Assembly (NCBI GenBank): GCA_043801165.1
Contig: JAZDMG010000007.1
Location: 70,155-134,154 of the forward strand
From: an archaeon
GTDB taxonomy: Archaea; Nanobdellota; Nanobdellia; Woesearchaeales; SM23-78
Reading direction: 5' to 3'
Length of the DNA: 64,000 bases
Shown here: positions 8,031 to 61,346 of the stretch, in pieces
Layout: every line of letters starts with the position of its first letter
Position numbering within the stretch: position 1 is the first letter of the stretch
Notes under the pieces: generated by a model
Database searches by the model: none
The model's input: only the letters and a program-made list of their open reading frames with translations
What the model was told of the DNA's origin: nothing
Translations under genes and position numbers: made by a program

Positions 8031-9024
8031 CCTTCTTATCTCCCTCTTTCTTATCTTCAACCTTACTATCTCTGGCCTTTTGTTTATTTCTTTCTTTTTG
8101 CGCATTCTTCCTGGCCGCATCGCGCTCCAGCTCAGCGATCCTCTTCTTCAGCTCGACCATCTTGAGCTCTCTTCTGACCATGAACTTATTGAGCTTCTCA
8201 AGAGTGCCTACTTTTCTGCCCAGTTCCTTTGTCCTATCGGCGACCTGAGATTCCAGCTCCTGCTGGTGCTTCTCAAGCAAGTTCTTTGAGATCAAAATCT
8301 CATTAGCCATTCCATTGAAAGAATCAGCCAACACGCCAAACTCATCCTTTGATTTCAACTTAACTTTATAATTAAGATTTCCATCTGAAATTGATTTCAC
8401 TCCTGCGTTAAGCTCACGGACCGGCACTAAAACAAACCATCTAATCAAAAGGAAAATCAGGATCAGCACAGCGATTGACAAGCAGACTGCTATTTTAACA
8501 TACTCCCTGATTGTTGCTTGAACCGCAGCCTCAATATCCTCCAGTATAAAAACTATCTCGAAAGTCCCACCTATCTTCCCCGACAGATGGATTGGCGAGA
8601 TAACCTTGAGAAGCATGCTGTTGCTGTTCTTGTCATTGAAAAATGTTGATGATGATAAGCCGGAAGTATAAACTTGAAGGTTCATGTCATCAGCAGCCTT
8701 CTTCACTTGCAAATAATTGTTAGACATATAGGTGACTAGTTCCCCATCTTCAGGAAGGTTGACGTTCAAGCTCAAAATATCTTCCTGGAGCCACATCATC
8801 TTCTGCATCTGAGATGATATTGCATTCTTATCTCCTAAAACCTCTTTTGTGCCAATTCCCGAATCAAGGGCATAAGCTATTGCCTGGACCTTGTCTAAAT
8901 AAGCGCTCATCATGTTTTTGCGGATGTTATCAGCCGAATAATATGTGAATAAGGAAAAGACTAGCACCAAGACTAAAAGAACAAATACAGATAACTTAAA
9001 GGCTAATCTTGACTTTGCAATCAT
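8023..9024 (-). CDS. Membrane sensor with HAMP domain and C-terminal coiled coil, no transmitter domain
   Basis: Two TM segments flank a ~150-aa extracytoplasmic region. HAMP: VPVRELNAGVKSISDGNLNYKVKLKSKDEFGVLADSFNGMANEI. Ends in the coiled coil LEKLNKFMVRRELKMVELKKRIAELERD. No H-box or ATPase motifs. Confidence 0.8.
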   Translation of the reverse strand: MIAKSRLAFKLSVFVLLVLVLVFSLFTYYSADNIRKNMMSAYLDKVQAIAYALDSGIGTKEVLGDKNAISSQMQKMMWLQEDILSLNVNLPEDGELVTYMSNNYLQVKKAADDMNLQVYTSGLSSSTFFNDKNSNSMLLKVISPIHLSGKIGGTFEIVFILEDIEAAVQATIREYVKIAVCLSIAVLILIFLLIRWFVLVPVRELNAGVKSISDGNLNYKVKLKSKDEFGVLADSFNGMANEILISKNLLEKHQQELESQVADRTKELGRKVGTLEKLNKFMVRRELKMVELKKRIAELERDAARKNAQKERNKQKARDSKVEDKKEGDKKDV

Positions 9025-11488: not shown

Positions 11489-14486
11489 TTTTACCTCGTT
11501 TCACATCAAGCTTGCTCTCAAGCTCAGCAACCTTCTCTTTCAGCTCGACCATCTTGAGTTCCCTGCCAACTGATAGCTTGTTGAACTTCTCAAGCTCATC
11601 AGACCTGGACTTTAGCTCCTCCTGGGAAATAAGGCTGGCGATGGCAATGCCGGTCTCGCGGCTTATGAGCGCGAGAGTCTTCTTCTCATCCTCAGAGAAC
11701 GAATAATGCTTTGTGGTTGCTATATTGATACAACCAATGATTTTTTCCTTTGACAATAAAGGCATGCTAGCCAAGGCATGCATCTTGGATTCTTTTGCTA
11801 AAGAAGGGTGTATCAATGAATATTCATCTGTGATTACAGGCTTTCCTTCCTTCAGGACAATAGAGAAAGGTTTCTTGTCAATATTTACTCTCAGAATATG
11901 CTTTTTAACAAAAGCATCACTAAATCCTTTCCAGCACTTGAGCTCTGCGAAATGGGTGCGCTCATCAATAATGTATATGCCTCCTTTCTCAAAGCCGATG
12001 AAGTCGAGAATGACCAATAAGATTGACTGAAGAAAATCTGGAAGGTTTTCAGCCGCATTAGCTGCGCTCATGATAAGATTGATAGTCTCGCTCTCGCGCG
12101 TCCTTAAACGCATGAACTCCTCTGACTTCTTTTTCTCAGTGACATCATCATAGACCGCTATTACCTCTCCCGAAGGAAGCTTATACACATAATTTTCTCG
12201 CCAATTGGCAATATGGTCATCCTTATACAATGAGATGGGGTGGTTCTCTGGCTTGCCGGTCTTCCAGACCCTCCTGAAAACATCCAGCAGGCCGAACTCT
12301 CGCACGCCAGGAAAAACGACGGTGACTTTCTTGCCAATGACATCCTCTTTCTTTATTTTCTCAGTCTTCTCAGCAGAAGGGTTGCACTCCCTGATAATAA
12401 AATCTTTTCCACCATCAACTGCCTCATATACTGCGACAGCGCTATTTATCTTGTTAACAAGCTCGCGATATCTAGACTCATTCTCCAGCAGGACGCTGTT
12501 TGCCATCTCCTGCTCGCTGACATCACGCATCGCCCCAAGCATACGATAAGGCTTGTCGCTCTTGTCCTTCAGGAACACTCCTTCCTCATGTATGAATACA
12601 TAATGCCCGCTCTTAGAGCGAAACCTGTACTGAACAAAATATTTGTCTCCTTTCACACGAGCCTTATCGAGCAGATCAACTGCCAGCTTCCTGTCATCAG
12701 AATGTATCATCTCTTCCCAACGCCGGATATCAACTTTCTCGAATTCTTTCTCAGAATAGCCTGTGATTGATTCGATAGCCCCTGACCAGATTATCTTTCC
12801 GGAAGCGAGGTCATAGTCATAAATCAGCTGGCCGGTCTGCTTGGAGACAAGTTCGTAGCGCTCCTCAGAGGATTTAAGGCTTTCTTCAGCTTTCTTTCGA
12901 TTAGCTATGTCTCGGCAGAGCGATATGATGCGTATCGACTCACCCGAGCCTACAACGGATGCATTAATCTCAACGGGTGTGATTTCGCCCTTTTCATCAA
13001 CATAATCGAGGACAAGATCCTTAATAAAGCCGTCTTTGATACATTGGGCCACAGCAACCGAGTTTTTTTGCTTCTCATAATCAGCAGTCCACTCAATCAC
13101 ACTCTTCCCAAGGATATCGCTGAGCCTACGGCGGCCTGTCAACCGCACGTATTCTGCGTTCGCATCTATAACTTTGCCTTTCCAATCAAGAATCAGAAAT
13201 CCTGTATCTGTCGCCTCTACAAGAGCTCGATATTTCTCCTCACTCTCGCGCAAAGCAGCATCGGCCTCCTTCATCTTGGTTATGTCCTCCACAAAAAGCA
13301 TTACTTTCTCTACTTTGCCTGCTTCATCAAGCATAGGCATACCTGTGAAGTTGCGAACCGTCTTCTTCTTGCTGAAATGCGAAACATATTCAAGAGAGCC
13401 TACAAAGAAAGACTTACCATTAAAACAGGATCTTATCTTCACAGCCAATCCAAGTCTGACATAAGTCGGAAGCTTGAAGACATTCATCTGCTTGAAGTTC
13501 GCTTTTGAATCACCCGAAATCCTTAGCAGGGCAGGGTTAACATAATCAACAGAGCCATCTCTCATAATAGTCATGATGCCAAAGGGAGCGTTCTCAACCA
13601 GCGCAGAATTAAGACTGTTTATTCTCAAAAAGGATTCCTCTGCTTTCTTGCGCTTAGTGATGTCAAATACCCTCGCTTGAAGCACACCCTTACCATGCAG
13701 CACAATCTTATCAAGCAGCACCTCGGCAGGGAAATCAGTACCGTCCAAACGCCTATGTACATGCTCAAACCGCGCACTGCCTTCCTTTAGGGCGCGTGTA
13801 ATATTATTTCTGGCATAACGCCTCGAATCAGTGCCATCCGGCTGGGTCGGAGGAGAGAAATCTGCAGGATGCCTGCTGCAAAACTCCTCTTTGGTGGCAC
13901 AACCGAAAAGCCGCAGCGTTGCCTTATTGCAATCAAAAAAGCCTTTCTCATCAAGAAGCATTATCGCGTCACTTGATGAGTCGTATAGAAGCTGGAGCTT
14001 AATTTTACTCTCAAGCAGCGCCTCCTCCGACTTCTTCCGTTCGGTGATGTCTCGTATTATGCTCAGAAAGTGGGGACCGCTCTTAAGCTTGATTATGCCT
14101 CCTGAGATGAGTGCGGGAAAGATCTTTCCGGACCTGTCGCGGAATGAAGTCTCAAAATCAACAGCCCTGCCTTTGCGCCTGATGATCGCGATGTAGCGGT
14201 CCCTGTCGCCACGGTCAGCCCATAATCTTAGCTTAGAAGTGGTATTGCCTATCACCTCTCCTCTTGAGTATCCGCTGAGAAGAAGAGCGCTCTCATTCAC
14301 CTCGGCTATACGCCCATCGGGGACTGTCAACAGCATAAATGCGTCAGGGCTATAATGGAAGACAGCTGAGAATTTTTCCTCGCTCTCGCGCAAAGCCTCA
14401 TCCGTCATTTTCATGGCGGAAATATCATTGCTTTGAGCAGCACCATTCCTTTTTCTCGTTCTTGCTTTGCCAGAAATCCTTCTCAC
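11478..14486 (-). CDS. Cytoplasmic six-PAS + GAF sensor protein ending in a coiled coil, no transmitter domain
   Basis: Six S-box-type PAS units, each opened by a linker such as ALRESEEKFSAVF, ALRESEEKYRALVE, SSEERYELVS or LENESRYRELVN and closed by DIT.(R/K)K.(A/S)EE. A GAF-like segment follows (LQSILLVILDFIGFEKGGIYIIDE...). The C-terminus reads LEKFNKLSVGRELKMVELKEKVAELESKL. No H-box or ATPase. Confidence 0.85.
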   Translation of the reverse strand: MRRISGKARTRKRNGAAQSNDISAMKMTDEALRESEEKFSAVFHYSPDAFMLLTVPDGRIAEVNESALLLSGYSRGEVIGNTTSKLRLWADRGDRDRYIAIIRRKGRAVDFETSFRDRSGKIFPALISGGIIKLKSGPHFLSIIRDITERKKSEEALLESKIKLQLLYDSSSDAIMLLDEKGFFDCNKATLRLFGCATKEEFCSRHPADFSPPTQPDGTDSRRYARNNITRALKEGSARFEHVHRRLDGTDFPAEVLLDKIVLHGKGVLQARVFDITKRKKAEESFLRINSLNSALVENAPFGIMTIMRDGSVDYVNPALLRISGDSKANFKQMNVFKLPTYVRLGLAVKIRSCFNGKSFFVGSLEYVSHFSKKKTVRNFTGMPMLDEAGKVEKVMLFVEDITKMKEADAALRESEEKYRALVEATDTGFLILDWKGKVIDANAEYVRLTGRRRLSDILGKSVIEWTADYEKQKNSVAVAQCIKDGFIKDLVLDYVDEKGEITPVEINASVVGSGESIRIISLCRDIANRKKAEESLKSSEERYELVSKQTGQLIYDYDLASGKIIWSGAIESITGYSEKEFEKVDIRRWEEMIHSDDRKLAVDLLDKARVKGDKYFVQYRFRSKSGHYVFIHEEGVFLKDKSDKPYRMLGAMRDVSEQEMANSVLLENESRYRELVNKINSAVAVYEAVDGGKDFIIRECNPSAEKTEKIKKEDVIGKKVTVVFPGVREFGLLDVFRRVWKTGKPENHPISLYKDDHIANWRENYVYKLPSGEVIAVYDDVTEKKKSEEFMRLRTRESETINLIMSAANAAENLPDFLQSILLVILDFIGFEKGGIYIIDERTHFAELKCWKGFSDAFVKKHILRVNIDKKPFSIVLKEGKPVITDEYSLIHPSLAKESKMHALASMPLLSKEKIIGCINIATTKHYSFSEDEKKTLALISRETGIAIASLISQEELKSRSDELEKFNKLSVGRELKMVELKEKVAELESKLDVKRGKNGL

Positions 14487-14726: not shown

Positions 14727-17700
14727 ATGGCAAATAAGCTATTTTATTCGTACACTAAATATTATAATATACCCGGCATATCACTAGGCATAGCTATTTC
14801 TGACCAAAAGCGAGCAAAGAGCCCGGTCTCAGACAATCCAAGGAATCACGTTCTTTTAGGGGAGGGTTGCGCCAAGAGCTCAGCGTGGAAGCAAAAGCAT
14901 CCAGGCGCAGCCCTCTTTTTTTACCTATTCACGCTGATAGCCATAATTCTCCAGGCAGTCCTGTGCAGCGCCCAAGGACAGATAGCATTGGACAAATCTC
15001 AGTATGGCGTCGGGGAGACTGTCAAGATAAAACTGATGAACGCAAGCCAGGACTTCGCACTCAATATAATCTCAGATAACGATGTCTTCAGGTATTCTGG
15101 TGAGCTCAAGGCAGAGATGGACTTCTACCCGACAAAGGAGGGGCAATACACGGTGCGCCTGAATGATCCTGGCAATAATATCCTGCTTGATGAGAAAACA
15201 TTCAGCGTCTCATACGATTACACGATAAGCAAGCCGGCTCTACTCTACACAGACAAGAAAGAATATCTCCTGGATGAGGCAGTGCAGATATTCGTGAACA
15301 CAAGCAGCGGAGGAGAATCAGCGGCTGAGCAGGAGCTCAGGATAGTATCAGACAAGGAATCGCTGAAATACCTCGGCGCCATAGACAGCCCGATCTCGTT
15401 CCTGCCACGCTATGCCGGCGCATACCAGCTCAAATTGATAAATCGATTCGTGCCTGTGGCCACCGCAGAATTCCTTGTGCTGAACCAGAGCATCAACGAA
15501 GCTGCCGCAGAGATCCCTGAGCAGCCAGAGACCCAGGCAACGGATAACAGGAGCTTTGAGAAGAACCAGACAGAGACAGGCATGGTCGGCATAGGCGTCC
15601 TGGACCAACAATCGACAGCCCAGAAACAGCAGGATGTTGGACTAGGAGCGATAGTAATCGACGACCAGCTGCTGCTGGCAGAGGACCAAGAGCTGGAGCT
15701 GCAGGCACCGAGAGGATTGAACATCACGCTGCCTTTCAGGTTAGAGCTCAGGGCAAGGCGCGGAGCCACGGCGAATGAAGACATAAGGAACAGCATAAGC
15801 ATCCTGAGAGCAGAAGGGACAAGATACGACGTCGAATACCTGCCTAGAAAAGCAAACATAAAAAGCATAGTTTTCAACAATCTCAAGCTGGACAGCGACA
15901 GGAGCTTTGATTTCGACGAGGTCACCCTCAAGAAAGAAGAATCCAAAAAAGAGCTGAGGGACAAGAAGATAGTCAAATCATTCTTCATAGACACAGCCCA
16001 GCTGAACTACACCAACGGCACAATAACAGCGATAGCGCTGGGCAAAGAGCTCTGGAAATGCAAAGAATGGAACTCCACCAGGGAGATATGCCTCGGCAAC
16101 TGGACTAAGGTACAGGACCTAACCCCTGGGAAGGAATACGAGATCATAATCACACCAGAAGACCCTGCCTACGCAGAGACCGGAGTGGCCAGCATAAACA
16201 CCAAGAAGCCAATATACCATCCGAACGAGACTGCAGAGATGATAATGGTTGTCCTGAACACAAAAGGACGCCTTGTCTCTAACGCGCAGGTGACGTTGTC
16301 AATTACAGCGCCTGACAGCACAACAACGACGCTAACCACAGCCAGCCAGGGCATAAAAGAGAGCAGCAGGGGGATATATGAGGCAGCCTACAGCAAGACA
16401 GGGCTGGAAGGCGAGTATTCGATGTTCGTCACAGCAACAGGATGGAACGTCAACTACAGCATGCAGTCGAGCTTTGAGGTGAGAGAGTTCTATGAGTTCG
16501 ACATCATAAGGGATACGCCTGTGACAATAGACCCCTGGCAGGGACCGTTCCAATCACGCATACAGCTGATGCCATACATCAACGTAACAAGCTATGATTT
16601 CACAGAAATCCTCCCCTCAGAGTTCGTTGTCACAGACAGCGGAGGAGCGCAGCAGAGGACAATAAACAACCAGACTTTCTTGACCTGGACAAACCTGAGC
16701 AGTGTAGAAACAGTTGGATACGAAGCCAACGCCCCACTGATAACACCGAACCTCTATGCGCTGGGCAGGTCATTCATAACCTATTTCGCCCAGGGAACAA
16801 ACATGCTGTTCACAGAAGCAAGGAACTGGTTCCTGGCTATAGATCCGCTGCAAAACCTCTTCTTCGATGATTTCGAGTCTTGGGGATGCAGGACAACAGG
16901 AGCGCCTATAGCAGGAAACAACTGCTTATACAGCGCAAATTGGGGACAGTTCACCAATTGCAACACTCCATCGACAGCAAGGTTCTGCACATCGGACGAT
17001 GGAAAAGAAGGGAATCACACCGCCAACTCCTATGCTATACAGATGACCAACTGGGTGATGGACTCAAGTGCAGGCCTATGGTTCACGCTAGATCCAAGCA
17101 TATACGACGACATAAACGTGAACGGATACATCTACGGAGCAAGCCTAGACAACGTCAGAGAATACTGCGCGATATGGGCAAGAGACTCAAACTCGATAGC
17201 ACCGATATACAACTGCACAAACACAATATGCACCGGAACAGACACAACCCCGCAGACAGATCTATACATCTATTTCAATATAAACCTGAGCAGCCTGAGC
17301 GGGATAAACCTTAGCGAAAGCAACATATCAGTGCACATAGGAGGAGCGCACTCAAACACAGCAGACTACTGCTTCTTCGACAGGATAAACATAACAGGGA
17401 TAGCATACCCGCCGAACATAACAAACCTGACCAACCCGCCAAACAACACCGTAACAAACCTGACAACAATCCAGTTCAACTTCACTGTCAACGCGACAAA
17501 AGACCTGGTGCTACCTAACTGCACGCTGTGGACAGACATGAACGGAAGCTGGATGGAAAACAGCACAATTTACAACGTGAGCAGGAACAGCATAACCAAC
17601 ATAACATTAGCAGACCTGCCAGACGGGACATTCAAATGGAATGTGATATGCTACACAAGGACAGGGCTCTACGACTGGTACGACAGCAACTACACATTGA

Positions 17701-20700
17701 CCATAGACGCCAGGCCTCCGATAAAGACAATCACAAGCATAGACAAGGACACCAGCGAGCCATGGAACACAACAAACAGAAACCCAGTGATAAACATAAC
17801 ACTCAACAAGAACGGGACATGCAGACTAAGCACGACAGATTCAAACTTCACAAGCATACCAAGCTATTACAATTGCACTGGAGCAAAAACAGCCAACATA
17901 AGCTGCACATACACAGGAACACAGCTAAACATAGGAACAAATTACCTATACGTAATATGCAATGACACATCAGGCCACAACGATAACACGACCTCGAACC
18001 TTGACATAACCTTCGAGGTCCTATGCGACGCACACAGCGACTGCGACAGCACATCATACTGCGACTACACCCAATACTGCCACTCTGATGAGCTAGCAGG
18101 CTATCCCTGCAACACACAAGCGCACACAGGGCTCGCATGGAATGATGTCTGCGGCAACGGCATCAATAGGTACTGCGTCAACGACAGCAGCTACAGCTAC
18201 ACAGGATGGTACTGCACAGGATCAGCAACAGACTGCGTATATAATGACCAGGGAAAAAGCTATGCGCTGGGCGAGACACTGTGCATCTCAGGAGTGAACG
18301 ATTACAGGAATTGCAGCAACAGCAACCTCTGGAGCAGCCAGGTCGACTGCGCTGAACAATTTGACGCGCATAACCAGTCTGCGACATACCATCCAGGCCT
18401 ATACTGCGGATACTATGGAACAGACCAAAGCTGCGTAAATGGTACATCCGGAGGATGCTCAGGAGCATCGACAGCATGCAATCCCTATATCTACAACCAG
18501 ACCATCACCGCATGCGGAAGCACACTAGAGGAATGCGACTGGGGATGCGGAGCAGGATGCGATGCCGGCAACAGCACAGCACCCGGGATAGCCAGCGGAA
18601 CATGCTACTACAACAAGAACTGCAATATCAACTGTTTATGGAGTCAGAGCTCAGAGGGAGCGCCTTCTTTCTGCATCAACGACAACGACGGAGGATCATG
18701 CGCATACAGCAACAGGACAGACCCGACGACATCAGACACATGCTACTGGAACGCCAGCTGCCAGAACACAGTTGGAGCGACCCTGAACAATAACAGCATA
18801 TTAATGGCAGACTACTGCGACTATTGCAACCAATACGGAAACCAAACAGGACAATACTCACCTGCACCAAACACGAGCTGCAGCTCAAACTGCGCAAATA
18901 GCGGAACCATCTATTATGATTCGGGTGGAACACCAGCGGACAGGAGCAATGACTGCAGCAACGGAATAACAATCATGCTGGGCGACACATTGACCCTTGG
19001 CGACATATGGAACGGAAGCGCACCGGCGCAATGCGACGCGGCAGAATGCAACCTAGACTGCGGAACAATGATAGGGACCTGCAGCGCAGGGATATGCAAC
19101 TGCACAGATCAGGACAATCCGCAATTGATATTGATCTGGCCAGACAACCTGACCTGGACCAACAACGCAAGCGTACAGTTCAGGTACAATGTCACAGACA
19201 TAAGCTCACAGATAAAGAACTGCTCATTAATCATAAACAATGTGGTGAACAGGACCAACACAAGCATCAACAAGAGCGTGGCAGAGCAGAGATTCATCGC
19301 GAACATGACCAACGGAACCTCCAACTGGAGCATAAGATGCTATGACAACAGCAGCAGCTTCAACCTCAACCAGTCAGAGACAAGAATCCTCGGGATAGAT
19401 ACGACGATCCCGCCCCTATTAAACCCGAGGATAAACGGGACCAATTTCACCATAAACAAGAACATATGCCTGAACATAACAGCGAACGACACATACTCAG
19501 GCATAAAAGACATCATAGCAACAATAATACCGCCCGGCCAGCCGGCAGAGAACATAACCCTGTACGACAACGCGACCACAAGCTGCGACGGGGCCAATGG
19601 AAACGGAGTATACTCTGCAGTATACGCATTGATATTCTCAGGCACATACAACTGGAGCTCAGCCTACGCCATAGACGATGCAAACAACCAGAACCTGACC
19701 TATCCAAACCTGCGCTGGAACGTCACCACCGGAGGGATAGTCAATGTGAGCATGAATTACCCGACGGCCAACATCAAGATAAACGAATCAGAATACAATT
19801 ATTTCTACGTGCAGAATTGCACCGCAGCCTGCAGCAACTCAGGAAGCAGCAACTGCACCGATGTAACCGTATCGATAGAATACTACCTCGCAGGGAGCTA
19901 TGAAACAATCAACACCACAACGACAGATCTAATCAGCAACAAGACATCATACTCCTGCGGCAACGTGACCCGAGGCAGCAACTGCACAACGACATTCAAC
20001 GTCACCGCAGGGCCGGGCAACAAGAGCTGGCCTGTCAGGTGCCGGGCAGATGGCGTCAACAGCGCGACAGCATTCTCAATCTCAAGGAACGTGACGATAA
20101 ACGACCACCCGACAGCCGGGATACTATACCCGATAAGCAGCCAGTGGCTGAAAGGAATCACCTATATCAACGCAAGCATCAGCTTCGACAGCGACGGATT
20201 AATCATCAACTACACCTTCAGCTATGACAACAACACAGCATTCAGCTCCCCGTCAATGATATGCAACGGAACAAGCAACAACTGCACATGGAACACCACT
20301 GCGCAGAACCAATGCCAGAACAACAGCATGAGCTGCTATCTGAGAGTGACTGTGACAGACAACGACAGGCTAACCAATAGCACATACATAATAGTCGGAT
20401 TCGATACCCAAGGACCGACGACAATCATAGGCAACCCTCAGAACTTCACCAACATAACAACCAGCCAGTACACTGTGAACGCGACAGTGACCGACAATGA
20501 GATAGGTACTATCAATCTGGTGATTTTCGAATACAGGGAAAACAGTACCGCATCATGGAAACAGGCATGCAACGACTCAGACCGGACAGCGCCATATGAA
20601 TGCAGCTGGAACACAACATCCCTGCTCGACGGAAAGACCTACGAAGTCAGAGCATATTCCACAGACGGGCTGAACAACACAGGAGCTGCGGACACAAGAA

Positions 20701-23700
20701 CCAACATAACAATAGACCGGAATGGGCCCACAATCAACCTTGAAAGGCCATCAAATAACTCATACAACACAGGAAACCAGACATTCTACTTCAATGTAAC
20801 AGACATCGCATCGAACATCAACAACTGCAGCATAATGCTTGACGGATCAATAAATCAGACCACATACAACCCTCAACAGAACATCTCCCTCAATTTCACG
20901 ATAAACGACAACACAGTAGGAAGCCACACATGGAGGATTGACTGCACCGATGGTGTAGGAAACGTGAACAGCAGCGAGACACGGACATTCACAGTGGACT
21001 TGACAGGGCCCGTAACCATCCTCAACAGGCCGCCGGCAGCAGACCCGAAGATGTACGGAATATACATTGTGAATGCCTCGGCGACAGACAGCGGAGTAGG
21101 AAACATCAGCACGGTGGCATTCGAATACAGGGAAAACAGCACCGCGGAATGGATATCAATATGCAACGCGACGCAGGGGCCAGCATATAACTGCAGCCTG
21201 GACACGACAGCGCTGGCCGACGGGACAACATACGAAGTAAGAGCATACGCGACGGATATATTGAACAACACAGGTTCCCCAAGCGTAAGATACTCTGTAA
21301 CCATAGATAACAACGGGCCAGCAATCGACGGCCTAAGCCCAGACCCAGGCTCCATAGACAACGACGGCAACGTGACATTCAGCTACCTAGTGGATGACAT
21401 AGGAAGTGGAGTAGCCAACTGCAGCCTGATGATAAACGGGTCTATCAACCAGACCAGCTTCGCTGTGCCAGAAGGAAGCGAACAATACTTCTACCTATAC
21501 AACCAGAACGACACCACCCTCAACTGGAGCATAAAATGCTGGGACGACTTCACAGCACAACCACACATGGCACAGACAAACCCGAGAACGCTCTACATAC
21601 TCATACTATACGTGCTTAAAAGCAACGTCACAACAGACAAGAAGACCTACGAGACAGGAAACCAGCAGTCAGACAGCATCAACATAACAACCACCACCAT
21701 CGACTACTCAAACCAGAGCATAGAAGCATCAGCAATCACAGACATAATCAAGACATCGGGCGAAAGCAGGAACATCTGGTGGAACACCACCTGGAGATAC
21801 AGGCTGAGGAACACGCTCACAGAGACAAGCAACAAAACAAGGAAAGACCAATGGGTCCACCTGTCATTCATGCTAGACCCTGACTGCAGCAACCTAGCGC
21901 ACAAGAACAGCCTGAGGCTGATACAGGACCCGGGAACGAACGTAGGCTTCAACCAATGGAACATAACCTACTGCACAGACACAAACTACATCAAGAGCCT
22001 GTGGGTGAGCTTCAGGCTGAACCTGACAGCAAACAGCAACACAAACATATACCTATACTACGACAATGCAAGCACAATCACAAAGACATCAAAAGACCAG
22101 GGTCCGATGAGGATGATCTGGGTGAGCGCAGGAGGGACAGGAAACGCACCCCTGCAGAACACAATAAAAACAGACCTTAACAGCGCGCTCTCGGCGCTGG
22201 GATTAGACCCAGGCACCTTCTATGACAACCTGAACACAACCGCGGCAAGCGCTGATTTCACGCTCACCAACATGCAGAATTACTCCATAGTATACTATGA
22301 CAGCGCAGCAAAATACAGCTCAAGCTGGTATACTACAGAAGCCAACGCAATGTTCCAATTCGTAAACCAATCAGGAAACCTATTCCTGACAGGACAGGAG
22401 CTAGGATACCAGGCAAACGCCGATGGATGGCTATACAATGGAGTATTCACAAACCTGACCCACGCAAGCGCAGGATACGTAGACAACGCGAACCCAACAA
22501 CATTCACAGTGGCAGCAAACCACCCGACGACAAAATACCTGGGTATGGGAACAACGGTGAGCGTGGCAGGGGATTACGAAGACGGATACACAACACTGGC
22601 AGGAAGCACCTCGGTCAGAATACTCAACTGGACAGGAAGCGCCACTCCGACAGCAGGAACAGCCAACGACGGGCTGAATGATCCCAGCTGCACAGGATTC
22701 TGCGGAAAGACGGTGTACTACTCAGGCCTGTTCTATATCTCAGCCACACAGGGAATACAGAACGTGACAGCAAGAAGCAGATTACTACAAGGGACAATAG
22801 AATGGTTCCTGAACAACAGCCTTGCAGAATCAAGGGGGCAGCAGGAGCAATGGATAGCAAGGAACACGACCGACACAACAGGAGCGCAAGGGCTATGGTC
22901 ATGGATACACCCTGCCGCAAGCATGAACGGAAGCTACCAGGCAGTGAGCCAAGCATCAAAAACAAAATACAACGACGCGACCAACTGGACTGGATTCAAC
23001 GTGACCATGGACAGGACGCCGCCAAACATCACGCTGAACGGGCCGCAAAATGAAAGCGAAGCCAACAGCTCAGTAACATTCTCATACTACGTTAATGACA
23101 CCCTCAGCACAGTACTGAACTGCACACTATTCATAGACGGCAATAAAGAAGACTCAGACCCGACAATACAGGAAGGGGTCATACAGTACTTCTACCCGAG
23201 AATCCCGACAGGAGGCTGGCATAATTGGAGCGTCAACTGCACAGACTACTACGGAAACATAGGTGCATCAGAGACATGGACAGTGTTCATCAAACCACCA
23301 GACCTCACAGTCACCAGCAGCGGCATAGCATTCAACAACACAACGCCGAGGGAAGGAGACAACATCACGATAATAGCCACTGTGCACAACACAGGAGGAT
23401 CAGACGCAGAGAACGTCAAGATGCAGTTCTACCTAAGAGACCCAGACACCGACGGAGTGCAGATAAACGGAAACTTCACAGCCAACATAACAGACATAAA
23501 TGGGGCACAGCCAAACGCGACATTCAACGTAAGCTGGGTGACAACAGGACCAGGACCGTTCAGCATATACGTTATAGTTGACCCTCCGACAGCCACCAAC
23601 GGAACGATTTTCGAATCAAACGAGACCAACAACAAGGCATACAACACCCTGAACGTGCCAGCATACAACCAATTCTACGGCCTGGTGAAGAACAATGTAT

Positions 23701-24224
23701 ACCTGAGCGACGAAAACAACAACTCGCTCTTCTATTACCTGAACATAACAAACGTCACTGGGAATATCTTCGCCATAGATGGAAGAAGCACGGTAGACTT
23801 CTCGGCGCTGCAATCGATGGGAAGAGATATCAACAACAACACCGCAGCCAATGACTTCAACGATACAGACACAGCACTCAACATGACCAGCTACAATGAT
23901 TCCATCAGAAGGACTTACACCGCAGGCACAGACACTCCCCTGACAACAAAAACATTCACATTTTACACCAAGACAACGCAAAACACTCCAATAATCAACA
24001 GCACCAACACAACCAGCTTTGTCACAGGAATACTATGGGACACAAGCGACGGAGGAACACAATACAACGGAACCCAGGACATCGCATTCATAACAGAGAT
24101 TAGCCAGAACAAGACAGGATCCTACGGCACATACGACTATGAGATAAAGGTACCGGTGAACCTGAAGAACTACGAAGGCCCAGGAAGCAGCGTCGCACTC
24201 TACTGGGAGATAAAAGAGCCATGA
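14727..24224 (+). CDS. Giant secreted/surface glycoprotein 1 (3165 aa)
   Basis: Single uninterrupted 9.5-kb ORF. Hydrophobic signal/anchor at aa 61-80. Very dense N-x-S/T sequons. Contains a jelly-roll-like module, a 38-Cys module, tandem Ig-like modules, a DUF2341-like opening (WWNTTWRYR), CARDB and a family-A-like C-terminal domain. No C-terminal TM or sorting tag (ends ALYWEIKEP). Start uncertain (60-aa leader before the signal). Confidence 0.9.
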   Translation: MANKLFYSYTKYYNIPGISLGIAISDQKRAKSPVSDNPRNHVLLGEGCAKSSAWKQKHPGAALFFYLFTLIAIILQAVLCSAQGQIALDKSQYGVGETVKIKLMNASQDFALNIISDNDVFRYSGELKAEMDFYPTKEGQYTVRLNDPGNNILLDEKTFSVSYDYTISKPALLYTDKKEYLLDEAVQIFVNTSSGGESAAEQELRIVSDKESLKYLGAIDSPISFLPRYAGAYQLKLINRFVPVATAEFLVLNQSINEAAAEIPEQPETQATDNRSFEKNQTETGMVGIGVLDQQSTAQKQQDVGLGAIVIDDQLLLAEDQELELQAPRGLNITLPFRLELRARRGATANEDIRNSISILRAEGTRYDVEYLPRKANIKSIVFNNLKLDSDRSFDFDEVTLKKEESKKELRDKKIVKSFFIDTAQLNYTNGTITAIALGKELWKCKEWNSTREICLGNWTKVQDLTPGKEYEIIITPEDPAYAETGVASINTKKPIYHPNETAEMIMVVLNTKGRLVSNAQVTLSITAPDSTTTTLTTASQGIKESSRGIYEAAYSKTGLEGEYSMFVTATGWNVNYSMQSSFEVREFYEFDIIRDTPVTIDPWQGPFQSRIQLMPYINVTSYDFTEILPSEFVVTDSGGAQQRTINNQTFLTWTNLSSVETVGYEANAPLITPNLYALGRSFITYFAQGTNMLFTEARNWFLAIDPLQNLFFDDFESWGCRTTGAPIAGNNCLYSANWGQFTNCNTPSTARFCTSDDGKEGNHTANSYAIQMTNWVMDSSAGLWFTLDPSIYDDINVNGYIYGASLDNVREYCAIWARDSNSIAPIYNCTNTICTGTDTTPQTDLYIYFNINLSSLSGINLSESNISVHIGGAHSNTADYCFFDRINITGIAYPPNITNLTNPPNNTVTNLTTIQFNFTVNATKDLVLPNCTLWTDMNGSWMENSTIYNVSRNSITNITLADLPDGTFKWNVICYTRTGLYDWYDSNYTLTIDARPPIKTITSIDKDTSEPWNTTNRNPVINITLNKNGTCRLSTTDSNFTSIPSYYNCTGAKTANISCTYTGTQLNIGTNYLYVICNDTSGHNDNTTSNLDITFEVLCDAHSDCDSTSYCDYTQYCHSDELAGYPCNTQAHTGLAWNDVCGNGINRYCVNDSSYSYTGWYCTGSATDCVYNDQGKSYALGETLCISGVNDYRNCSNSNLWSSQVDCAEQFDAHNQSATYHPGLYCGYYGTDQSCVNGTSGGCSGASTACNPYIYNQTITACGSTLEECDWGCGAGCDAGNSTAPGIASGTCYYNKNCNINCLWSQSSEGAPSFCINDNDGGSCAYSNRTDPTTSDTCYWNASCQNTVGATLNNNSILMADYCDYCNQYGNQTGQYSPAPNTSCSSNCANSGTIYYDSGGTPADRSNDCSNGITIMLGDTLTLGDIWNGSAPAQCDAAECNLDCGTMIGTCSAGICNCTDQDNPQLILIWPDNLTWTNNASVQFRYNVTDISSQIKNCSLIINNVVNRTNTSINKSVAEQRFIANMTNGTSNWSIRCYDNSSSFNLNQSETRILGIDTTIPPLLNPRINGTNFTINKNICLNITANDTYSGIKDIIATIIPPGQPAENITLYDNATTSCDGANGNGVYSAVYALIFSGTYNWSSAYAIDDANNQNLTYPNLRWNVTTGGIVNVSMNYPTANIKINESEYNYFYVQNCTAACSNSGSSNCTDVTVSIEYYLAGSYETINTTTTDLISNKTSYSCGNVTRGSNCTTTFNVTAGPGNKSWPVRCRADGVNSATAFSISRNVTINDHPTAGILYPISSQWLKGITYINASISFDSDGLIINYTFSYDNNTAFSSPSMICNGTSNNCTWNTTAQNQCQNNSMSCYLRVTVTDNDRLTNSTYIIVGFDTQGPTTIIGNPQNFTNITTSQYTVNATVTDNEIGTINLVIFEYRENSTASWKQACNDSDRTAPYECSWNTTSLLDGKTYEVRAYSTDGLNNTGAADTRTNITIDRNGPTINLERPSNNSYNTGNQTFYFNVTDIASNINNCSIMLDGSINQTTYNPQQNISLNFTINDNTVGSHTWRIDCTDGVGNVNSSETRTFTVDLTGPVTILNRPPAADPKMYGIYIVNASATDSGVGNISTVAFEYRENSTAEWISICNATQGPAYNCSLDTTALADGTTYEVRAYATDILNNTGSPSVRYSVTIDNNGPAIDGLSPDPGSIDNDGNVTFSYLVDDIGSGVANCSLMINGSINQTSFAVPEGSEQYFYLYNQNDTTLNWSIKCWDDFTAQPHMAQTNPRTLYILILYVLKSNVTTDKKTYETGNQQSDSINITTTTIDYSNQSIEASAITDIIKTSGESRNIWWNTTWRYRLRNTLTETSNKTRKDQWVHLSFMLDPDCSNLAHKNSLRLIQDPGTNVGFNQWNITYCTDTNYIKSLWVSFRLNLTANSNTNIYLYYDNASTITKTSKDQGPMRMIWVSAGGTGNAPLQNTIKTDLNSALSALGLDPGTFYDNLNTTAASADFTLTNMQNYSIVYYDSAAKYSSSWYTTEANAMFQFVNQSGNLFLTGQELGYQANADGWLYNGVFTNLTHASAGYVDNANPTTFTVAANHPTTKYLGMGTTVSVAGDYEDGYTTLAGSTSVRILNWTGSATPTAGTANDGLNDPSCTGFCGKTVYYSGLFYISATQGIQNVTARSRLLQGTIEWFLNNSLAESRGQQEQWIARNTTDTTGAQGLWSWIHPAASMNGSYQAVSQASKTKYNDATNWTGFNVTMDRTPPNITLNGPQNESEANSSVTFSYYVNDTLSTVLNCTLFIDGNKEDSDPTIQEGVIQYFYPRIPTGGWHNWSVNCTDYYGNIGASETWTVFIKPPDLTVTSSGIAFNNTTPREGDNITIIATVHNTGGSDAENVKMQFYLRDPDTDGVQINGNFTANITDINGAQPNATFNVSWVTTGPGPFSIYVIVDPPTATNGTIFESNETNNKAYNTLNVPAYNQFYGLVKNNVYLSDENNNSLFYYLNITNVTGNIFAIDGRSTVDFSALQSMGRDINNNTAANDFNDTDTALNMTSYNDSIRRTYTAGTDTPLTTKTFTFYTKTTQNTPIINSTNTTSFVTGILWDTSDGGTQYNGTQDIAFITEISQNKTGSYGTYDYEIKVPVNLKNYEGPGSSVALYWEIKEP
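16826..17410 (+). other. Giant 1: conserved jelly-roll-like (ConA/MAM-like) module
   Basis: Opens FLAIDPLQNLFFDDFESWG and closes ADYCFFDRINITGIAYPP. The FDDFE...W ... F(F/Y)(D/E)xI pattern resembles lectin/MAM-type beta-sandwiches (inference from the pattern only). Near-identical at nucleotide level to 44931-45512. Confidence 0.5.
18024..19103 (+). other. Giant 1: Cys-rich module (38 Cys in ~360 aa by my count)
   Basis: Runs from CDAHSDCDSTSYCDYTQYCHSDE to CGTMIGTCSAGICNC. The Cys pattern is conserved in giant 2 at 46126-47211. Confidence 0.8.
19121..21600 (+). repeat. Giant 1: tandem array of two alternating Ig-like module types (approximate bounds)
   Basis: Type 1: ...F.(Y/F)NV.D..S.I.NCS(L/I)...G..NQT ... 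W.I.C.D..GN.N.SE.R. Type 2: ...V.A(T/S).TD...G.I..V.FEYREN(S)T..W..(A/I)CN....P(Y)(E/N)C.W(N/D)T..L.DG.TYEVRAY(S/A)TD..NNTG. Confidence 0.7.
21777..22080 (+). other. Giant 1: DUF2341-like segment
   Basis: Opens WWNTTWRYRLRNTL and ends IYLYYDNAS. The W-x-N/D-x-x-W-x-Y/Q-R opening and the ...YYxN ending are my recollection of DUF2341. Not verified by search. Confidence 0.45.
23295..23657 (+). other. Giant 1: CARDB domain
   Basis: PPDLTVTSSGIAFNNTTPREGDNITIIATVHNTGGSDAENVKMQFY...IYVIVDPP...IFESNETNNKAYNTLNV is the canonical CARDB pattern (PDL...G....I...V.N.G...A..V.V ... D....V.E.NE.NN). Confidence 0.8.
23664..24221 (+). other. Giant 1: C-terminal family-A-like domain (186 aa)
   Basis: YNQFYGLVKNNVYLSDENNNSLFYYLNITNVTGNIFAIDGRSTVDFSAL aligns with A3 WKAYVGNVSGSFVLQNVNNRSIYEWPSVSVASGKLFISRNASVNFSGV. 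The C-terminal YDYEIKVP...ALYWEIKEP aligns with YDFQAIIAE...YYFYVELD. It is more divergent than the free copies, and the two family Cys are absent. Confidence 0.6.
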
Positions 24225-43005: not shown

Positions 43006-46000
43006 ATGCGTAATTGCCTTTTGATAAATAGATTTATGATTATTCTAGCCTTAATCATGCTGCAGTTGGTGTCCGTGGCTATCGGCGCAGTATCAAGTCA
43101 TGATCCGATAACACTTGATAAGCAAAGCTATCTCATCGAGGATACTGCTGTCCTGAGCATCAACATCAATCCTTCTCAATATGACATTTATGAGCTAAGC
43201 ATCACTGATTCAAGTGGCAAGTACACCTTTAGAGGCACTTTTAATCCGGAAATGTTCTTCTACCCTACAGAGGAAGGCATCTATACCGCAGCCCTGGTTG
43301 AACGATCAACCGGGGCTATTTATTATTCTAAGTCATTCAATGTCAGCATTGATGAGAGCAAAGCCAGACGGCGGGTGATCGAGAACGGGATTGCCAGGGG
43401 GGCTGACAGCGTAATCAATGCGACGAATCTCTCTTCACCCGAAAGCAAGAATCAAAGCCATGGCCAGAATCAGGCATTGCCTATTCTTCCGGCAATCAGC
43501 CAGGACCAGGCGTATATCTCTCTGGAGAAGGATAGGTTTTTCCTCGAGGAAAAGATCAGAGTCATCTTAAAGAGCGATGTGGTCAGTAGACAGGATTCAT
43601 ACCATTTGTTCTACTCGTCCAATGGAGAGACCAAGCGTTACATGGGTGATTTGTCATTCATCGAGTTCACACCTTCAGGCATAGGGACGCATGAGCTCCT
43701 GCTGACAGATTCTGATGATAAGCTATTATATTCCAAGAGTTTCAGCGTCACAGCTACAGAAGATGATGAGGACTTCACCAATCCGGATACGAACCGAATA
43801 CTGATACGAGCTCATGGCGGAGCACGTCAAGAGAGCAAGATCATCATCCATGATGAATTTGGCAGGGAAATCAATCTCAGCAGCATCCCTAACAAAAAGT
43901 TATCTGCTTCTTCAGGTTTGACCAACAGATTCAGAGCTGAGGTAATGCCTAATCACGGTCTGAAGAGCATAATATTCAATGGCCTTGCTTTGGGCAATTC
44001 GAGTGATTTTGATCTTGGCTTTGAGGAAATTCCCCCTGAGAACATCCGTGTCAAAGACAGGAGAGCCATCAAATCTTTTGCTATCGATGCCTCTAAACTT
44101 AATTTCATCTCAGGGGCAGCCGTCGGCAGGGCTGTCGGGACCGAGCTTTGGAAGTGCAAGAACTGGTCTTTTGAATCTCAGCAATGCGACGGCACCTGGG
44201 TCAAGGTAATGGATCTCGTGCCTGGCAGGGAATATCAGATAGCGATAACGCCAGATGACCCTGGCTACACAGAGACAGGAGTCGCTGCGGTCAACTCTCT
44301 GAAGCCGATCTATCACCCTGGAGAGGTCGCTGTCCTGTGGATGGTCGTCCTGGATACGAAAGGCCACCTAGTCACAGGCGCAGACATCTCTCTCAATGTT
44401 ACTACGCCATTGAATAATACTATGATGCTGACAACCGCCAGCGGAGAAATAAATGAGATCATGAAAGGAGTCTATGGAGCGAACTTCTCAGATACGTATT
44501 CTGAGGGGAACTACACGCTCTTGATGAGTGCGAAATCATCTATGGTCGACAGCTCATTGTATTCAAATTTCGAGGTCAAGGAGGAATATGATTTCGACAT
44601 AATCAGGAATGCTCCGATAACAACAGACCCATTCACAGGCCCATTTGAATCTTCTCTCACGATAAGACCAGAAGATGTCAACAGCGAGATAGAAAATTAT
44701 AATTTCACAGAGATACTTCCGTTAGACTTCGATATAGTGTCGGCGCCCAATGCCCTGATCTCGCATGATGAAACAAAAAGATTCCTCTTCTGGAGCAATC
44801 TGAGTGGAGAATCAGTCGTCAGTTACATTGCCCAGCCTCCAAAGATTACGCCAAATCTTTTCATGCTGGGAAGATCGTTCATCGACTATGTCAGCGACGG
44901 AATCATCAGGCGGTTCATCGAGGCCAGGTTCTGGTTCCTGGCTATAGATCCGCTGCAAAACCTCTTCTTCGATGATTTCGAGTCTTGGGGATGCAGGACA
45001 ACAGGGGTACCTGCAGCAGGAAACAACTGCTCATACAGCGCAAATTGGGGAGAATTCACCAACTGCTACACCTTACCAGCAGCCAGATTCTGCACAACGG
45101 ACGATGGGCAGGAAGGAAACCACGCAACATACGCCATCCAGATGACCAACTGGAGGATGGACGCAAGCGCAGGGCTATGGTTCTCGCTAGATCCAAGCAT
45201 ATACGACGACATAAACGTGAACGGATACATCTACGCAGGAAGCCTAGACAACAACGCAGAATACTGCATGATATGGGCAAGAGACTCAAACTCAATAGCA
45301 GCAATTTACAACTGCACGAACGGAGCAGCATGCGACGGAACAACACAGACACCGAATATATCAAACTATGTGAAATACGACGTAAATCTGAGCGGCCTGA
45401 GCGGGATAGACCTAAGCGAAAGCAACATATCAGTGCACATAGGAGGAGCGCACTCAAACACAGCAGACTACTGCTTCTTCGACAGGATAAACATAACAGC
45501 AATAGCATATCCGCCGGATGTCACCAATCTCACCTATCCTGCCAATGGTACCACTGTCAATCTGACAACCTTCGACCTTAATTTCACTGTCAACGCCTCA
45601 AGAGACCTGGTCCTGCCCAACTGCACGCTATGGACCGACCTGAATGGGAGCTGGGCGGCAAACATCACAATATACAATGTCAGCAGGAACAACATAACCA
45701 ACATATCAGTGAACCCGATAATAGACGGGGCATACAACTGGAGCATAATATGCTACACGAGAACTGGCTTATATGATTGGTACGACAACAATTTCACATT
45801 CCTTGTCAATGCAAGGCCGCCAATCAAAAATGTCAGTAGCGTAGACGGCGACGTGAGCGCCCCCTGGAACACCACCAACAGGAACCCTGTGATAAACCTG
45901 AGCCTCAACAAGAACGGAAACTGCAGGTTCAGCTTCAGCAGCGAGTCATATGAAGATATGAGTGATGATTATGATTGTTCAGGGGATGGCACGGCATCAA

Positions 46001-49000
46001 TCAGCTGCACATATACAGGGGCTCAGCTAGACATAGCAACATATTCTTTATATTTTGCATGCAATGACACCTATGGCCACGCAGACAACGTCTCGACAAA
46101 CCTAAGGGTGGACATCGATGTGCTTTGTGACTCCCATTCAGACTGCCTGAGCAACGAATACTGCGATTACACCCAAAACTGCCACTCAGACGAACTGCCA
46201 GGATATCCATGCAACACACAAGCTCACACAGGACTTGCATGGAATGACGTATGTGGTAATGGAGCCGACAGGTACTGCGTCAACGACTCAACATACAGCT
46301 ACACAGGATGGTACTGCACAGGATCAGCAACAGACTGCGTATACAACGACCAAGGAAAAAGCTATGCGCTGACCTATAATCTTTGCATAGGCGGCACCAA
46401 CGACTATAAGACCTGTGATGCAGGAAACCAATGGGATGCGACGGTGGATTGCGCAGACCAATATGACCCATTCAACCAAAGCGCAACAACGCACAGCGGA
46501 GAATATTGCGCGTATTACCCTGACCAGCAGTCCTGCAGCAACGGGACTGCCGGAGGATGCTCAGGGATCTGGACTGGATGCGATTATCACATCTACAATC
46601 AGGCTATACAGACCTGTGGCAGCTCGATGGAGGACTGCGACCTTGGCTGTGGGGCAGGATGCGACAGCACGAACAGCACCGAGCCGACAATCATCTCAGG
46701 CACCTGCTATTATGATAGGAGCTGCAATGGCATATGCGCATGGAGCCAGAGCCAGGAAGAAGCTCCGCTATCCTGCATAAATGATGATGATGGAGGAGCA
46801 TGTGTATACAGCAATAGGACAGACCCAAGCATCCAAGGCATATGCTATTGGAACACGACATGCGAAAATACATTAGGAGCAACGCAAAACAACAACAGCA
46901 TACTCCGAGCAGACTACTGCGACTTCTGCATCTTATCTGGAAACAACAGCGGAGAATACTCGCCAGCTCCGAATACGAGCTGCAGCTCCGGTTGCGAAAA
47001 CAGCGGAACAATATACTATGATACAGGATCAACACCACTTAACCGATCAGATGACTGCAGCAATGGAATGACTATCATACTGAGCGACACACTTGCAACA
47101 GGAGACATATGGAACGGAAGCGCACCAGCAGTATGCGACGACACAGAATGCACAGATGACTGCGGAACATTATTCGGCGCATGCAACATCACCACGGGAA
47201 ACTGCGAATGCACAGACATGGACAACCCGATCCTGATTATTATATGGCCGGAGGATGGGATGTGGACCAACAATGCGAGCGTGAGATTCAGGTATAACAT
47301 CACAGATATAAGCTCAGGGATAAAGAACTGCTCGCTGATAGTGGATGGTGATATCGACCAGACCAATTCGACAATCGACGAGAGCCTCAATGAGCAGGAG
47401 TTCATGCAATCATTCGCCAACGGGACTATACTGTGGAGCATCAGCTGTTTCGACGATAGCACACAATATAATAATAACCGGTCAGACAACGGCATCCTGG
47501 GCATCGATACTGTGGCGCCGCCAGTATTATTCCCTAGCATCAACGGAAGCGATTTCAACATCAACCAGAAGATATGCCTTAACATAACAGCGAACGATAC
47601 CTACGCAGGGATAAAAGATATCATCGCGGAGATAAAACCTCCGGGCCAGCCAGCAGAAAATATAAGCTTGTATGACGATGCGATGACAAGCTGTGATGGA
47701 GTGAACGGTGACGGAGTGTTCTCTGCGTCTTACACATTGATATTCGCAGGTGTATATGATTGGATCACAGCCTATGCCATAGACTATGCTGACAACCAGA
47801 ACATCACAGACCCGGGATTTGACTGGAATGTCAGCGCTGGCGGCATACTGAACCTCACGATGCCGCTGCCATCGGGTGACATCAAGATAAATGAATCAGA
47901 ATCCAATAATTATTTCCTGCAGGAATGCAACGTCACCTGCTCAGACCAGGGAAATGCCTGTGACGATGTCATCCTTAGTGCAGAGTTCAATGATGGCTCA
48001 TCCTTCCTAGCCATCAACACTTCATCGACAGGATTGGTAAACGACCAGGATGATTATGCCTGCGGCAATCTTGCCATCGGCCAGAGCTGCGCCGCAACAT
48101 TCAACATAACCTCGGGAGCTGATTCTGGGAACAACACCTGGCCTGTGAGATGCAGGGCAGATGGCAGCACCAGCGCAACTACGTTCTCAGGAGCTAGAAA
48201 CATCACCATAAACAATCATCCTGACGTCAACATCAGCCATCCCCAGAACAGTGACTGGCTCAGTGGGGCGATGAATATCAACTCAAGCCTCAGCTTCGAC
48301 AGCGACGGCACAATCTCAAATTACCTGTTTGAATACGATGACAAAGCAGACTTCGACAGCCCCAGCACCATATGCGACGACGCAAGCAGCAGCTGCACAT
48401 GGAACACGACCACACAGGACCAGTGCCAGAACAACAGCATGGACTGCTATCTCAGGGTGACTGTGACAGACAATGATGGACTGAGCAACAGCACATACAT
48501 AACCATCGGGTTTGATACTGAGGGTCCTGTGACTAGCATAACCAATCCTGGGAACTTCGCTGCGACCGCATCTGATTTGATGACGCTTGAGGCGACTGCA
48601 ACAGATGACCAGATCGGAATAGTCAACCAGCTATCCTTTGAATACCGCCGGAACAACACAGACTCATGGAAGCCTGCCTGCAATGATACCACTGAGCCAT
48701 TCTCATGCAATTGGAACCTGGTCGCATTGGTTGACGACAGCACATATGAAGTGAGGGCCTTCGCGGAAGACTATTTCAACAACACAGGAAACATAGATGC
48801 CATCACCAACATTACCATAGACCGCTCGTCCCCGTTGACAAGCCTGGAGAGCCCCCAGCAGGGATTTGCGACCACAGAGCACAACATCACTTTCTATTAC
48901 AATGTATCTGACGCATTATCAGGCATACTGAACTGCGAGCTCATAATCGATGGGAATGTGGACCAGACCAACTCAAGCGTGCAAGAGGGCATCAGCCAGA

Positions 49001-61163: not shown

Positions 61164-61346
61164 CTGCACCACCCTCCAATCGCATTCCTATCTCTGCCCG
61201 CCTCTTCTTCTGCGAATGGGAACAAATATCTAGAACCCATAAATGTTTTCCTTCGTCCGACCATTGATCGCATTAAAAAAAAGAGAGTATGGAGATTCCT
61301 TTTTATAGATTTCTGTGATGCAAGACACACATCACGATATCTTACG

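Follow-up and report, generated by a model that had tools for sequence, protein, structure and literature searches.

Why do two anciently diverged giant genes of one archaeal genome share stretches of DNA in which not a single nucleotide differs? The question is raised by a 64,000-nucleotide (nt) stretch of contig JAZDMG010000007.1 (positions 70,155 to 134,154; the whole stretch is here called the window) from a woesearchaeal metagenome-assembled genome (MAG; GCA_043801165.1, G000 in the following). It carries two genes for giant proteins: A0 (14727-24224, forward strand), whose open reading frame (ORF), Pfam domains and syntenic orthologue A1 define a secreted, Cys-rich surface protein of 3165 amino acids (aa), and B0 (43006-52383, forward strand; 3125 aa), a paralogue of A0 located 28.1 kb downstream on the same strand, with its own syntenic orthologue B1. 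The two proteins are 47% identical overall. We assign a probability of roughly 0.87 to the reading that recent, recurrent ectopic (non-allelic) gene conversion in short tracts, acting between ancient paralogues 28 kb apart in direct orientation, left the perfect tracts as its footprints. Patches of ~50-110 nt were copied within one module of the two genes after the split from a sister species, in both directions, more than once and in two lineages, and the A-B homology that is adequate for recombination starts exactly at this module.

Both perfect tracts reported by the initial annotation hold at every position: 16826-16900 equals 44931-45005 (75/75) and 17313-17397 equals 45415-45499 (85/85). 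Its third pair, given as ~90% identical (18196-18270 vs 46296-46370), does not align in the register in which it was written (18/75), but with a shift of +2 (46298-46372) the identity is 71/75 (95%); its figure of ~30% for the N-terminal ~650 aa agrees broadly with the 36.5% that we obtained over aligned residues (29% for the first 420 aa). A codon-aware alignment of A0 and B0 revealed two further exact runs, one of 51 nt starting at 17086, the other of 50 nt starting at 18192. The tract ends fall at the first mismatch clusters. Tract 1 (16826-16900) belongs to a concordant fragment reaching ~16946 that includes two indels private to A0/B0, tract 2 (17086-17136, equal to 45185-45235) to a fragment of ~17078-17186 that is homogenised in both genomes, and tract 3 (17313-17397), copied from A to B, coincides with the peak of between-species synonymous conservation. 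Between the tracts lies an unconverted, paralogue-specific loop (17195-17312) with an A0-B0 identity of 56-64%, in which the orthology signal is kept. Further downstream, in a Cys-rich region, an older common tract (18192-18241, equal to 46294-46343) shows a proportion of synonymous differences (pS) of 0.30-0.39 for all pairs; all of these features are on the forward strand. The module itself extends over 16842-17414 in A0 and 44947-45516 in B0 (both forward), comprises ~190 aa and is 80% identical at the aa and 84.5% at the nt level between the two copies.

Along nearly the whole gene, pS between A0 and B0 (Nei-Gojobori, 40-codon windows) lies at the saturated level of 0.7-1.0, and it dips to 0.08 at 16830, 0.09 at 17049, 0.15 at 17268 and 0.30 at 18156. 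The sliding profile of synonymous divergence (dS) is thus non-uniform, and the mosaic suspected by the initial annotation is confirmed. Over the entire alignment, the fraction of identical codons at identical amino acids is 0.55, vs 0.50 expected from codon usage. Where the amino acids are identical, the codon usage of the two genes would give identical codons with a chance of ~8e-9 over the 75-nt tract and ~1e-8 over the 85-nt tract; codon bias was therefore rejected as the cause of the tracts (P ~1e-8 per tract).

A protein search yielded a sister genome (ENA ERZ27248074, contig k141_1232257), which is syntenic and carries the orthologues of both giants, A1 and B1. The identity of the orthologues is 83% (A0-A1) and 80% (B0-B1) at the aa level. 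The flanking XPD gene of G000 and its sister counterpart are 88% identical at the nt level, and the two genomes therefore represent different species. As more distant relatives we used B2 (L017), A3 (L018) and X4; B2 and A3 come from different species (65-69% nt identity in the common flanking gene) and served as outgroups, not as a third genome pair. The A/B duplication is older than the split from at least three other sampled species. Within the tracts, a giant resembles its paralogue in the same genome more than its orthologue in the other genome, and this comparison with the sister decides the matter. At 16830-16950 the sliding nt identity is 0.94 for A0-B0 vs 0.79 for both A0-A1 and B0-B1; at 17049-17170 it reaches 0.89 for A0-B0 and 0.85 for A1-B1, vs 0.80-0.81 for the orthologues and 0.75-0.76 for the cross pairs. 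At 16830-17049 the pS of A0-A1 is 0.56-0.61 (the usual orthologue level is 0.2-0.45), so that synonymous sites in the tracts are not frozen. In addition, a one-codon deletion (FES-WGC vs FESGWGC) and a one-codon insertion (YSANWG) are common to A0 and B0 and occur in none of A1, B1, B2, A3 and X4. The A1 sequence is 100% identical over 6528 nt between an independent JGI assembly (L020, Ga0315276_10000706) and the ENA assembly (L015, ERZ27248074). The A gene of the sister species has thus been found in two independent metagenome assemblies of different sources, and the organism recurs across samples.

Formal tests of exchange gave the following picture. Among quartet-informative sites of the whole gene, 2077 support orthology, 107 group the paralogues by genome, and 78 support the third split, which serves as a control for homoplasy. 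By-genome sites outnumber control sites 24:4 in the region singled out by the initial annotation (D=0.71, binomial P=1.8e-4), compared with ratios of 12:16, 21:19, 30:21 and 20:18 in the four remaining parts of the gene. A GENECONV-style permutation of polymorphic sites identified concordant A0-B0 runs of 19 sites (16835-16900), 10 sites (16929-16946), 13 sites (17087-17132) and 10 sites (17319-17397), matched in 0 of 5000 shuffles (P<2e-4). When the permutation was limited to synonymous sites, in codons whose residue is invariant across the four genes, runs of 17 sites (spanning 16835-16946) and 13 sites persisted, again matched in 0/5000 shuffles. Approximately unbiased (AU) tests favoured different trees along the module: at 17035-17140 the topology ((A0,B0),(A1,B1)) was best and orthology was rejected (p=0.022), whereas in the loop at 17195-17312 orthology was best and the by-genome tree was rejected (p=0.0017). 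A single tree on the entire segment 16800-17140 was poorly supported because this segment is itself a mosaic; its sub-segments gave resolution.

Regarding direction and age, B0 carries in tract 3 the A-type ISVHIG, like A0, A1 and A3, where B1, B2 and X4 have ISIHIG, and it matches A1 at 9/11 sites at which A1 and B1 differ; the A-type state of B0 therefore indicates transfer from A to B. The three youngest tracts show 0 differences in 211 nt and must therefore be much younger than the species split. The sister has A1-B1 tracts of its own at 18651-18689 and 18968-19004 (A0 coordinates; identity 0.95, pS 0.11), positions at which G000 has none. In the 18192 tract the four genes, two from each species, resemble one another to about the same degree (pS 0.30-0.39), which fits an event near or before the species split. 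A high-scoring segment pair of A0 and B0 over ~16760-20447 (71% nt identity), in which pS is somewhat below saturation, probably reflects an older, larger exchange over about 16.8-20.4 kb.

Several observations weigh against gene conversion as we describe it, or narrow what can be said about it. In the AU test of 16826-16950 the by-genome tree was preferred, but orthology (p=0.084) was not rejected at the 5% level, and for 17313-17400 (tract 3) neither topology was favoured. The 85-nt tract shows unusual synonymous conservation between species, and its identity may be partly retained rather than newly copied. In tract 1, A-type, B-type and new states are interleaved without a single donor direction, and this patchwork therefore implies several events or events in both lineages. 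Timing and direction are derived from one quartet, with one sister genome that has both orthologues, and the tracts of G000 come from one metagenome assembly.

Larger replacements were also observed in these genes. At 19080-20170, A0 and A1 are only 57-65% identical vs ~87% elsewhere; within this segment A0 is closer to B0/B1 at 19380-19700 (74/71%), where A1 groups with A3 (bootstrap 100), and A1 has a 305-aa insertion after A0 position ~19974. This divergence is an older, larger replacement in one lineage. A3, the A-type gene of a more distant species (L018, 17477-18100; A0 21800-22700), contains the second copy of the module, and its C-terminal half is B-like (67% nt identity to B0 vs 35-45% to A0); large domains have therefore been exchanged between the A and B types across species.

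As to mechanism, the short patches would arise through RadA-mediated strand invasion with a non-crossover outcome, and the invasion may be seeded at stretches that are already near-identical through conserved residues and preferred codons. RadA is present in G000 (434 bits, above the curated cut-off). MutS was not found in this 92%-complete genome, and the absence of MutS-type mismatch repair may ease exchange; NucS/EndoMS is present. Crossovers would delete the 28 kb between the two genes and would presumably be selected against; no crossover product with the 28-kb loss was seen. On the simplest reading, long near-identical stretches, and with them possible starts for recombination, exist because conserved residues use preferred codons. 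Homogenisation may be maintained by selection, e.g., if both giants bind one partner via the module, or it may be neutral.

The initial annotation had proposed either ongoing gene conversion or extreme constraint on the module, synonymous sites included. The dS profile and the comparison with the orthologues support the former and refute constraint as the sole explanation, of which a weak form is left for the 85-nt tract only. Purifying selection at the nucleotide level (constraint on synonymous sites, an overlapping gene, or an RNA or DNA element embedded in the coding sequence) that kept the tracts identical without any exchange is, overall, very unlikely. It can point to between-species comparisons, in which within-genome conversion cannot act: the segment 17328-17403 has the top excess of identical codons in the whole gene (0.76 at invariant residues, where the mean is 0.445; permutation P=0.012), the segment 16857-16960 ranks second, and in TADYCFFDRINIT all codons are the preferred ones. 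However, the orthologues diverge synonymously in tracts 1 and 2 (pS 0.56-0.61), which refutes constraint as the sole cause there, and the by-genome sites, the shared derived indels and the conflicting AU topologies are beyond what constraint can produce. Moreover, orthologous copies of the module (89% and 71% aa identity) are not better conserved than the remaining protein. An Rfam search of the window gave no match, and the tracts have no RNA fold signal (z -0.8 to +0.6). At the 85-nt tract, constraint probably seeds conversion rather than replacing it. The off-frame ORFs that had been cited as added support for identity at the DNA level do exist (16880-17314, forward, 144 aa, with a twin at 44985-45581), but they begin with LGMQDNR, from a TTG start, and are by-products of that identity without evidential weight of their own. 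The ORF at 16880-17314 is not a gene, and overlapping genes were rejected, since the same frame contains 4, 6, 9 and 22 stops in A1, B2, A3 and X4 (four of the five relatives).

An assembly artefact, in which the assembler merged or cross-threaded the paralogues at common k-mers and so created false identity, is highly improbable, even though G000 is a MAG and the protein is on a single contig in the database. The tracts are at most 85 nt long, shorter than usual reads and final k-mers, so that single reads span the tracts together with their unique flanks. The pattern is graded, with shared indels and near-identical stretches containing scattered differences, which is hard to square with an artefact, and both loci are continuous within the 237-kb contig. 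In addition, the independently assembled sister shows a like mosaic at other positions, and its A gene is exact in a second assembly. The least credible alternative, a one-off recent transfer of the entire module between the paralogues (a domain duplication) followed by uneven divergence, would be in line with the differing modules held by the slot after EARxWFLAIDP in this family, which indicate that module replacement does occur, and with the abrupt rise of A-B homology at the module start, but it is contradicted by the presence of the module in both sister paralogues and in two more distant species, by the strong support for orthology in the central loop (17195-17312), by tracts of differing age side by side (0 differences in three vs pS 0.3 at 18156), by the independent A1-B1 tracts of the sister lineage and by a non-uniform dS across the module, and the old large exchange over ~16.8-20.4 kb leaves the perfect tracts unexplained.

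What is the module that short-tract conversion keeps alike? It starts at the DP of the family-wide EARxWFLAIDP motif, exactly where the strong A-B similarity begins, and ends before an immunoglobulin (Ig)-like PPNITN domain. It is one part of a conserved scaffold common to the two proteins. The module had no match in Pfam even at E<=10, and no meaningful match among PDB sequences. An AlphaFold2 model shows an all-beta sandwich (pLDDT 66, pTM 0.70; the N-terminal 60 residues are poorly modelled), and the best Foldseek matches of the model, of modest similarity, are CBM4-2 (2y6j), LAST-MAM (8a28), CBM22/15/61 and meprin MAM (E ~2e-4, TM 0.4-0.48). We tentatively regard the module as a binding-type beta jelly-roll that resembles carbohydrate-binding modules (CBM) and MAM domains, as suggested by the model. 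B0 contains a second, old copy near its C-terminus (50197-50796, forward), with ~30-35% aa identity to the first copy, which lies outside the conversion. At the DNA level, the module region occurs in two copies only in the 1.44-Mb genome (the A0 and B0 loci). Further donor copies elsewhere in the genome were considered and rejected, with matches at the two loci only.

The content of the slot after the EARxW[FY]LA[IV]DP motif differs among the giants of the family: G000 and close kin have the jelly-roll module, congeners an unrelated one of ~160 aa and P0009 a MAM domain, whereas P0008 and P0010-12 carry inserts of 400-600 aa. The Ig-like PPN[IV]T...NFTV domain always follows 3' of the slot and is the same in every family member compared. 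In 14 congeneric species representatives the giants have the slot motif with other modules, and no orthologous tract was found. A spot at the 3' edge of the module in A0 (17328-17403) is the most synonymously conserved spot of the 9.5-kb gene: six genes of four species use the same preferred codons at 11 invariant residues in a row, which may reflect selection for translational accuracy, exchange between species or a role at the DNA level. It is conceivable, with the odds clearly against it, that codon-frozen module edges act as recombination handles, by which woesearchaeal giants would swap whole binding modules via the fixed slot, between paralogues and perhaps between species. This idea would fit the variable slot content and the conserved edges. 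If true, it would describe a natural cassette-exchange system changing what these probably host-dependent cells stick to, with the perfect tracts as its latest footprints.

Concerted evolution through gene conversion is well established for tufA/tufB and for rRNA operons. The A0/B0 case is like prokaryotic concerted evolution in that the paralogues within a genome are closer than orthologues in set segments, trees are incongruent along the gene, and the pattern recurs in separate lineages. Ectopic conversion of prokaryotic paralogues has been described for the duplicated mtrA of methanogens (PMC4632066) and in 26 long-lasting cases (PMC6053082). Here, however, small patches of ~50-110 nt in a 9.5-kb gene are affected and the remainder is saturated, and the gene products are not core-pathway proteins but giants at the surface of a DPANN archaeon. 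For DPANN giants, the literature search gave no report of such conversion.

Among surface proteins, programmed antigenic variation relies on cassettes, as in Neisseria pilE/pilS, Borrelia vlsE and Mycoplasma genitalium MgPa. With these systems the A0/B0 pair shares the segmental, non-reciprocal transfer between related surface-protein sequences. In contrast to them, A0 and B0 are both complete ORFs without silent or truncated donors (there are two DNA copies in the genome), and it is not the variable loop (17195-17312) that moves but the conserved module edges. No dedicated cis element for exchange was found at A0/B0. Most similar among surface proteins are the bab loci of Helicobacter pylori (PMC4552749), where the adhesin paralogues babA/babB/babC undergo inter-locus gene conversion (PMC4552749, PMC5483490): in both cases adhesin-type genes that are full-length paralogues at different loci trade segments through RecA-type recombination, resulting in chimeras. 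In bab, however, the variable ligand-binding middle is swapped and the phenotype changes, whereas in A0/B0 the conserved module edges are exchanged and the variable loop stays paralogue-specific. The Giant1-5 genes of Apilactobacillus kunkeei, which are neighbours in a 1.5-Mb genome and encode extracellular proteins of 3000-8000 aa, likewise have a dS that varies strongly along their length and contain many short tracts of intragenic recombination (PMC12863079). There, recombination was found between strains, but no conversion between the giants of one genome (PMC12863079), unlike A0/B0, where the exchange is between paralogues of one genome.

The A0/B0 tracts are therefore clean but ordinary gene conversion between duplicates: an expected process in a new setting, with no new mechanism. 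They are evidence of active homologous recombination between diverged repeats in the small genome of an uncultivated DPANN archaeon, and they show that its genes for giant surface proteins evolve as mosaics. Trees and orthology calls for such giants need to be made domain by domain, and assemblers and binners must handle identical stretches within giant paralogues as genuine sequence. Since the putative jelly-roll is what stays alike in the two giants, it is a candidate for a common binding function.

The source genome comprises 1.44 Mb in 48 contigs and is 92% complete; A0 and B0 are on one contig of 237 kb, both loci being continuous, and their arrangement is syntenic in the sister contig. 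The Pfam domains of the two giants are MG2, Big_7, Big_3_3 and CARDB, and the N-termini of both consist of a signal-peptide-like segment. A0 contains 168 N-glycosylation sequons (N-x-S/T) and 84 Cys; the giants have ~5 sequons per 100 residues and 84-97 cysteines. Homologues with source names come from MAGs of Woesearchaeota/Nanoarchaeota. A 6134-aa giant on the same contig resembles A0/B0 at the protein level only in the pre-slot motif. Among the neighbouring genes are those for an archaeal XPD helicase and for a fused PyrB-PyrI (59589-61172, reverse strand), a single ORF of 527 aa in which the catalytic domains of aspartate carbamoyltransferase (OTCace_N/OTCace) are joined to the regulatory-chain domains (PyrI, PyrI_C). 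Finally, an 81-nt direct repeat of 77% identity (8122-8202 and 11514-11594) connects the start of the gene region of a 1360-aa histidine kinase with a gene for a 1002-aa PAS/GAF protein and is probably a shared segment coding for a coiled coil or linker.

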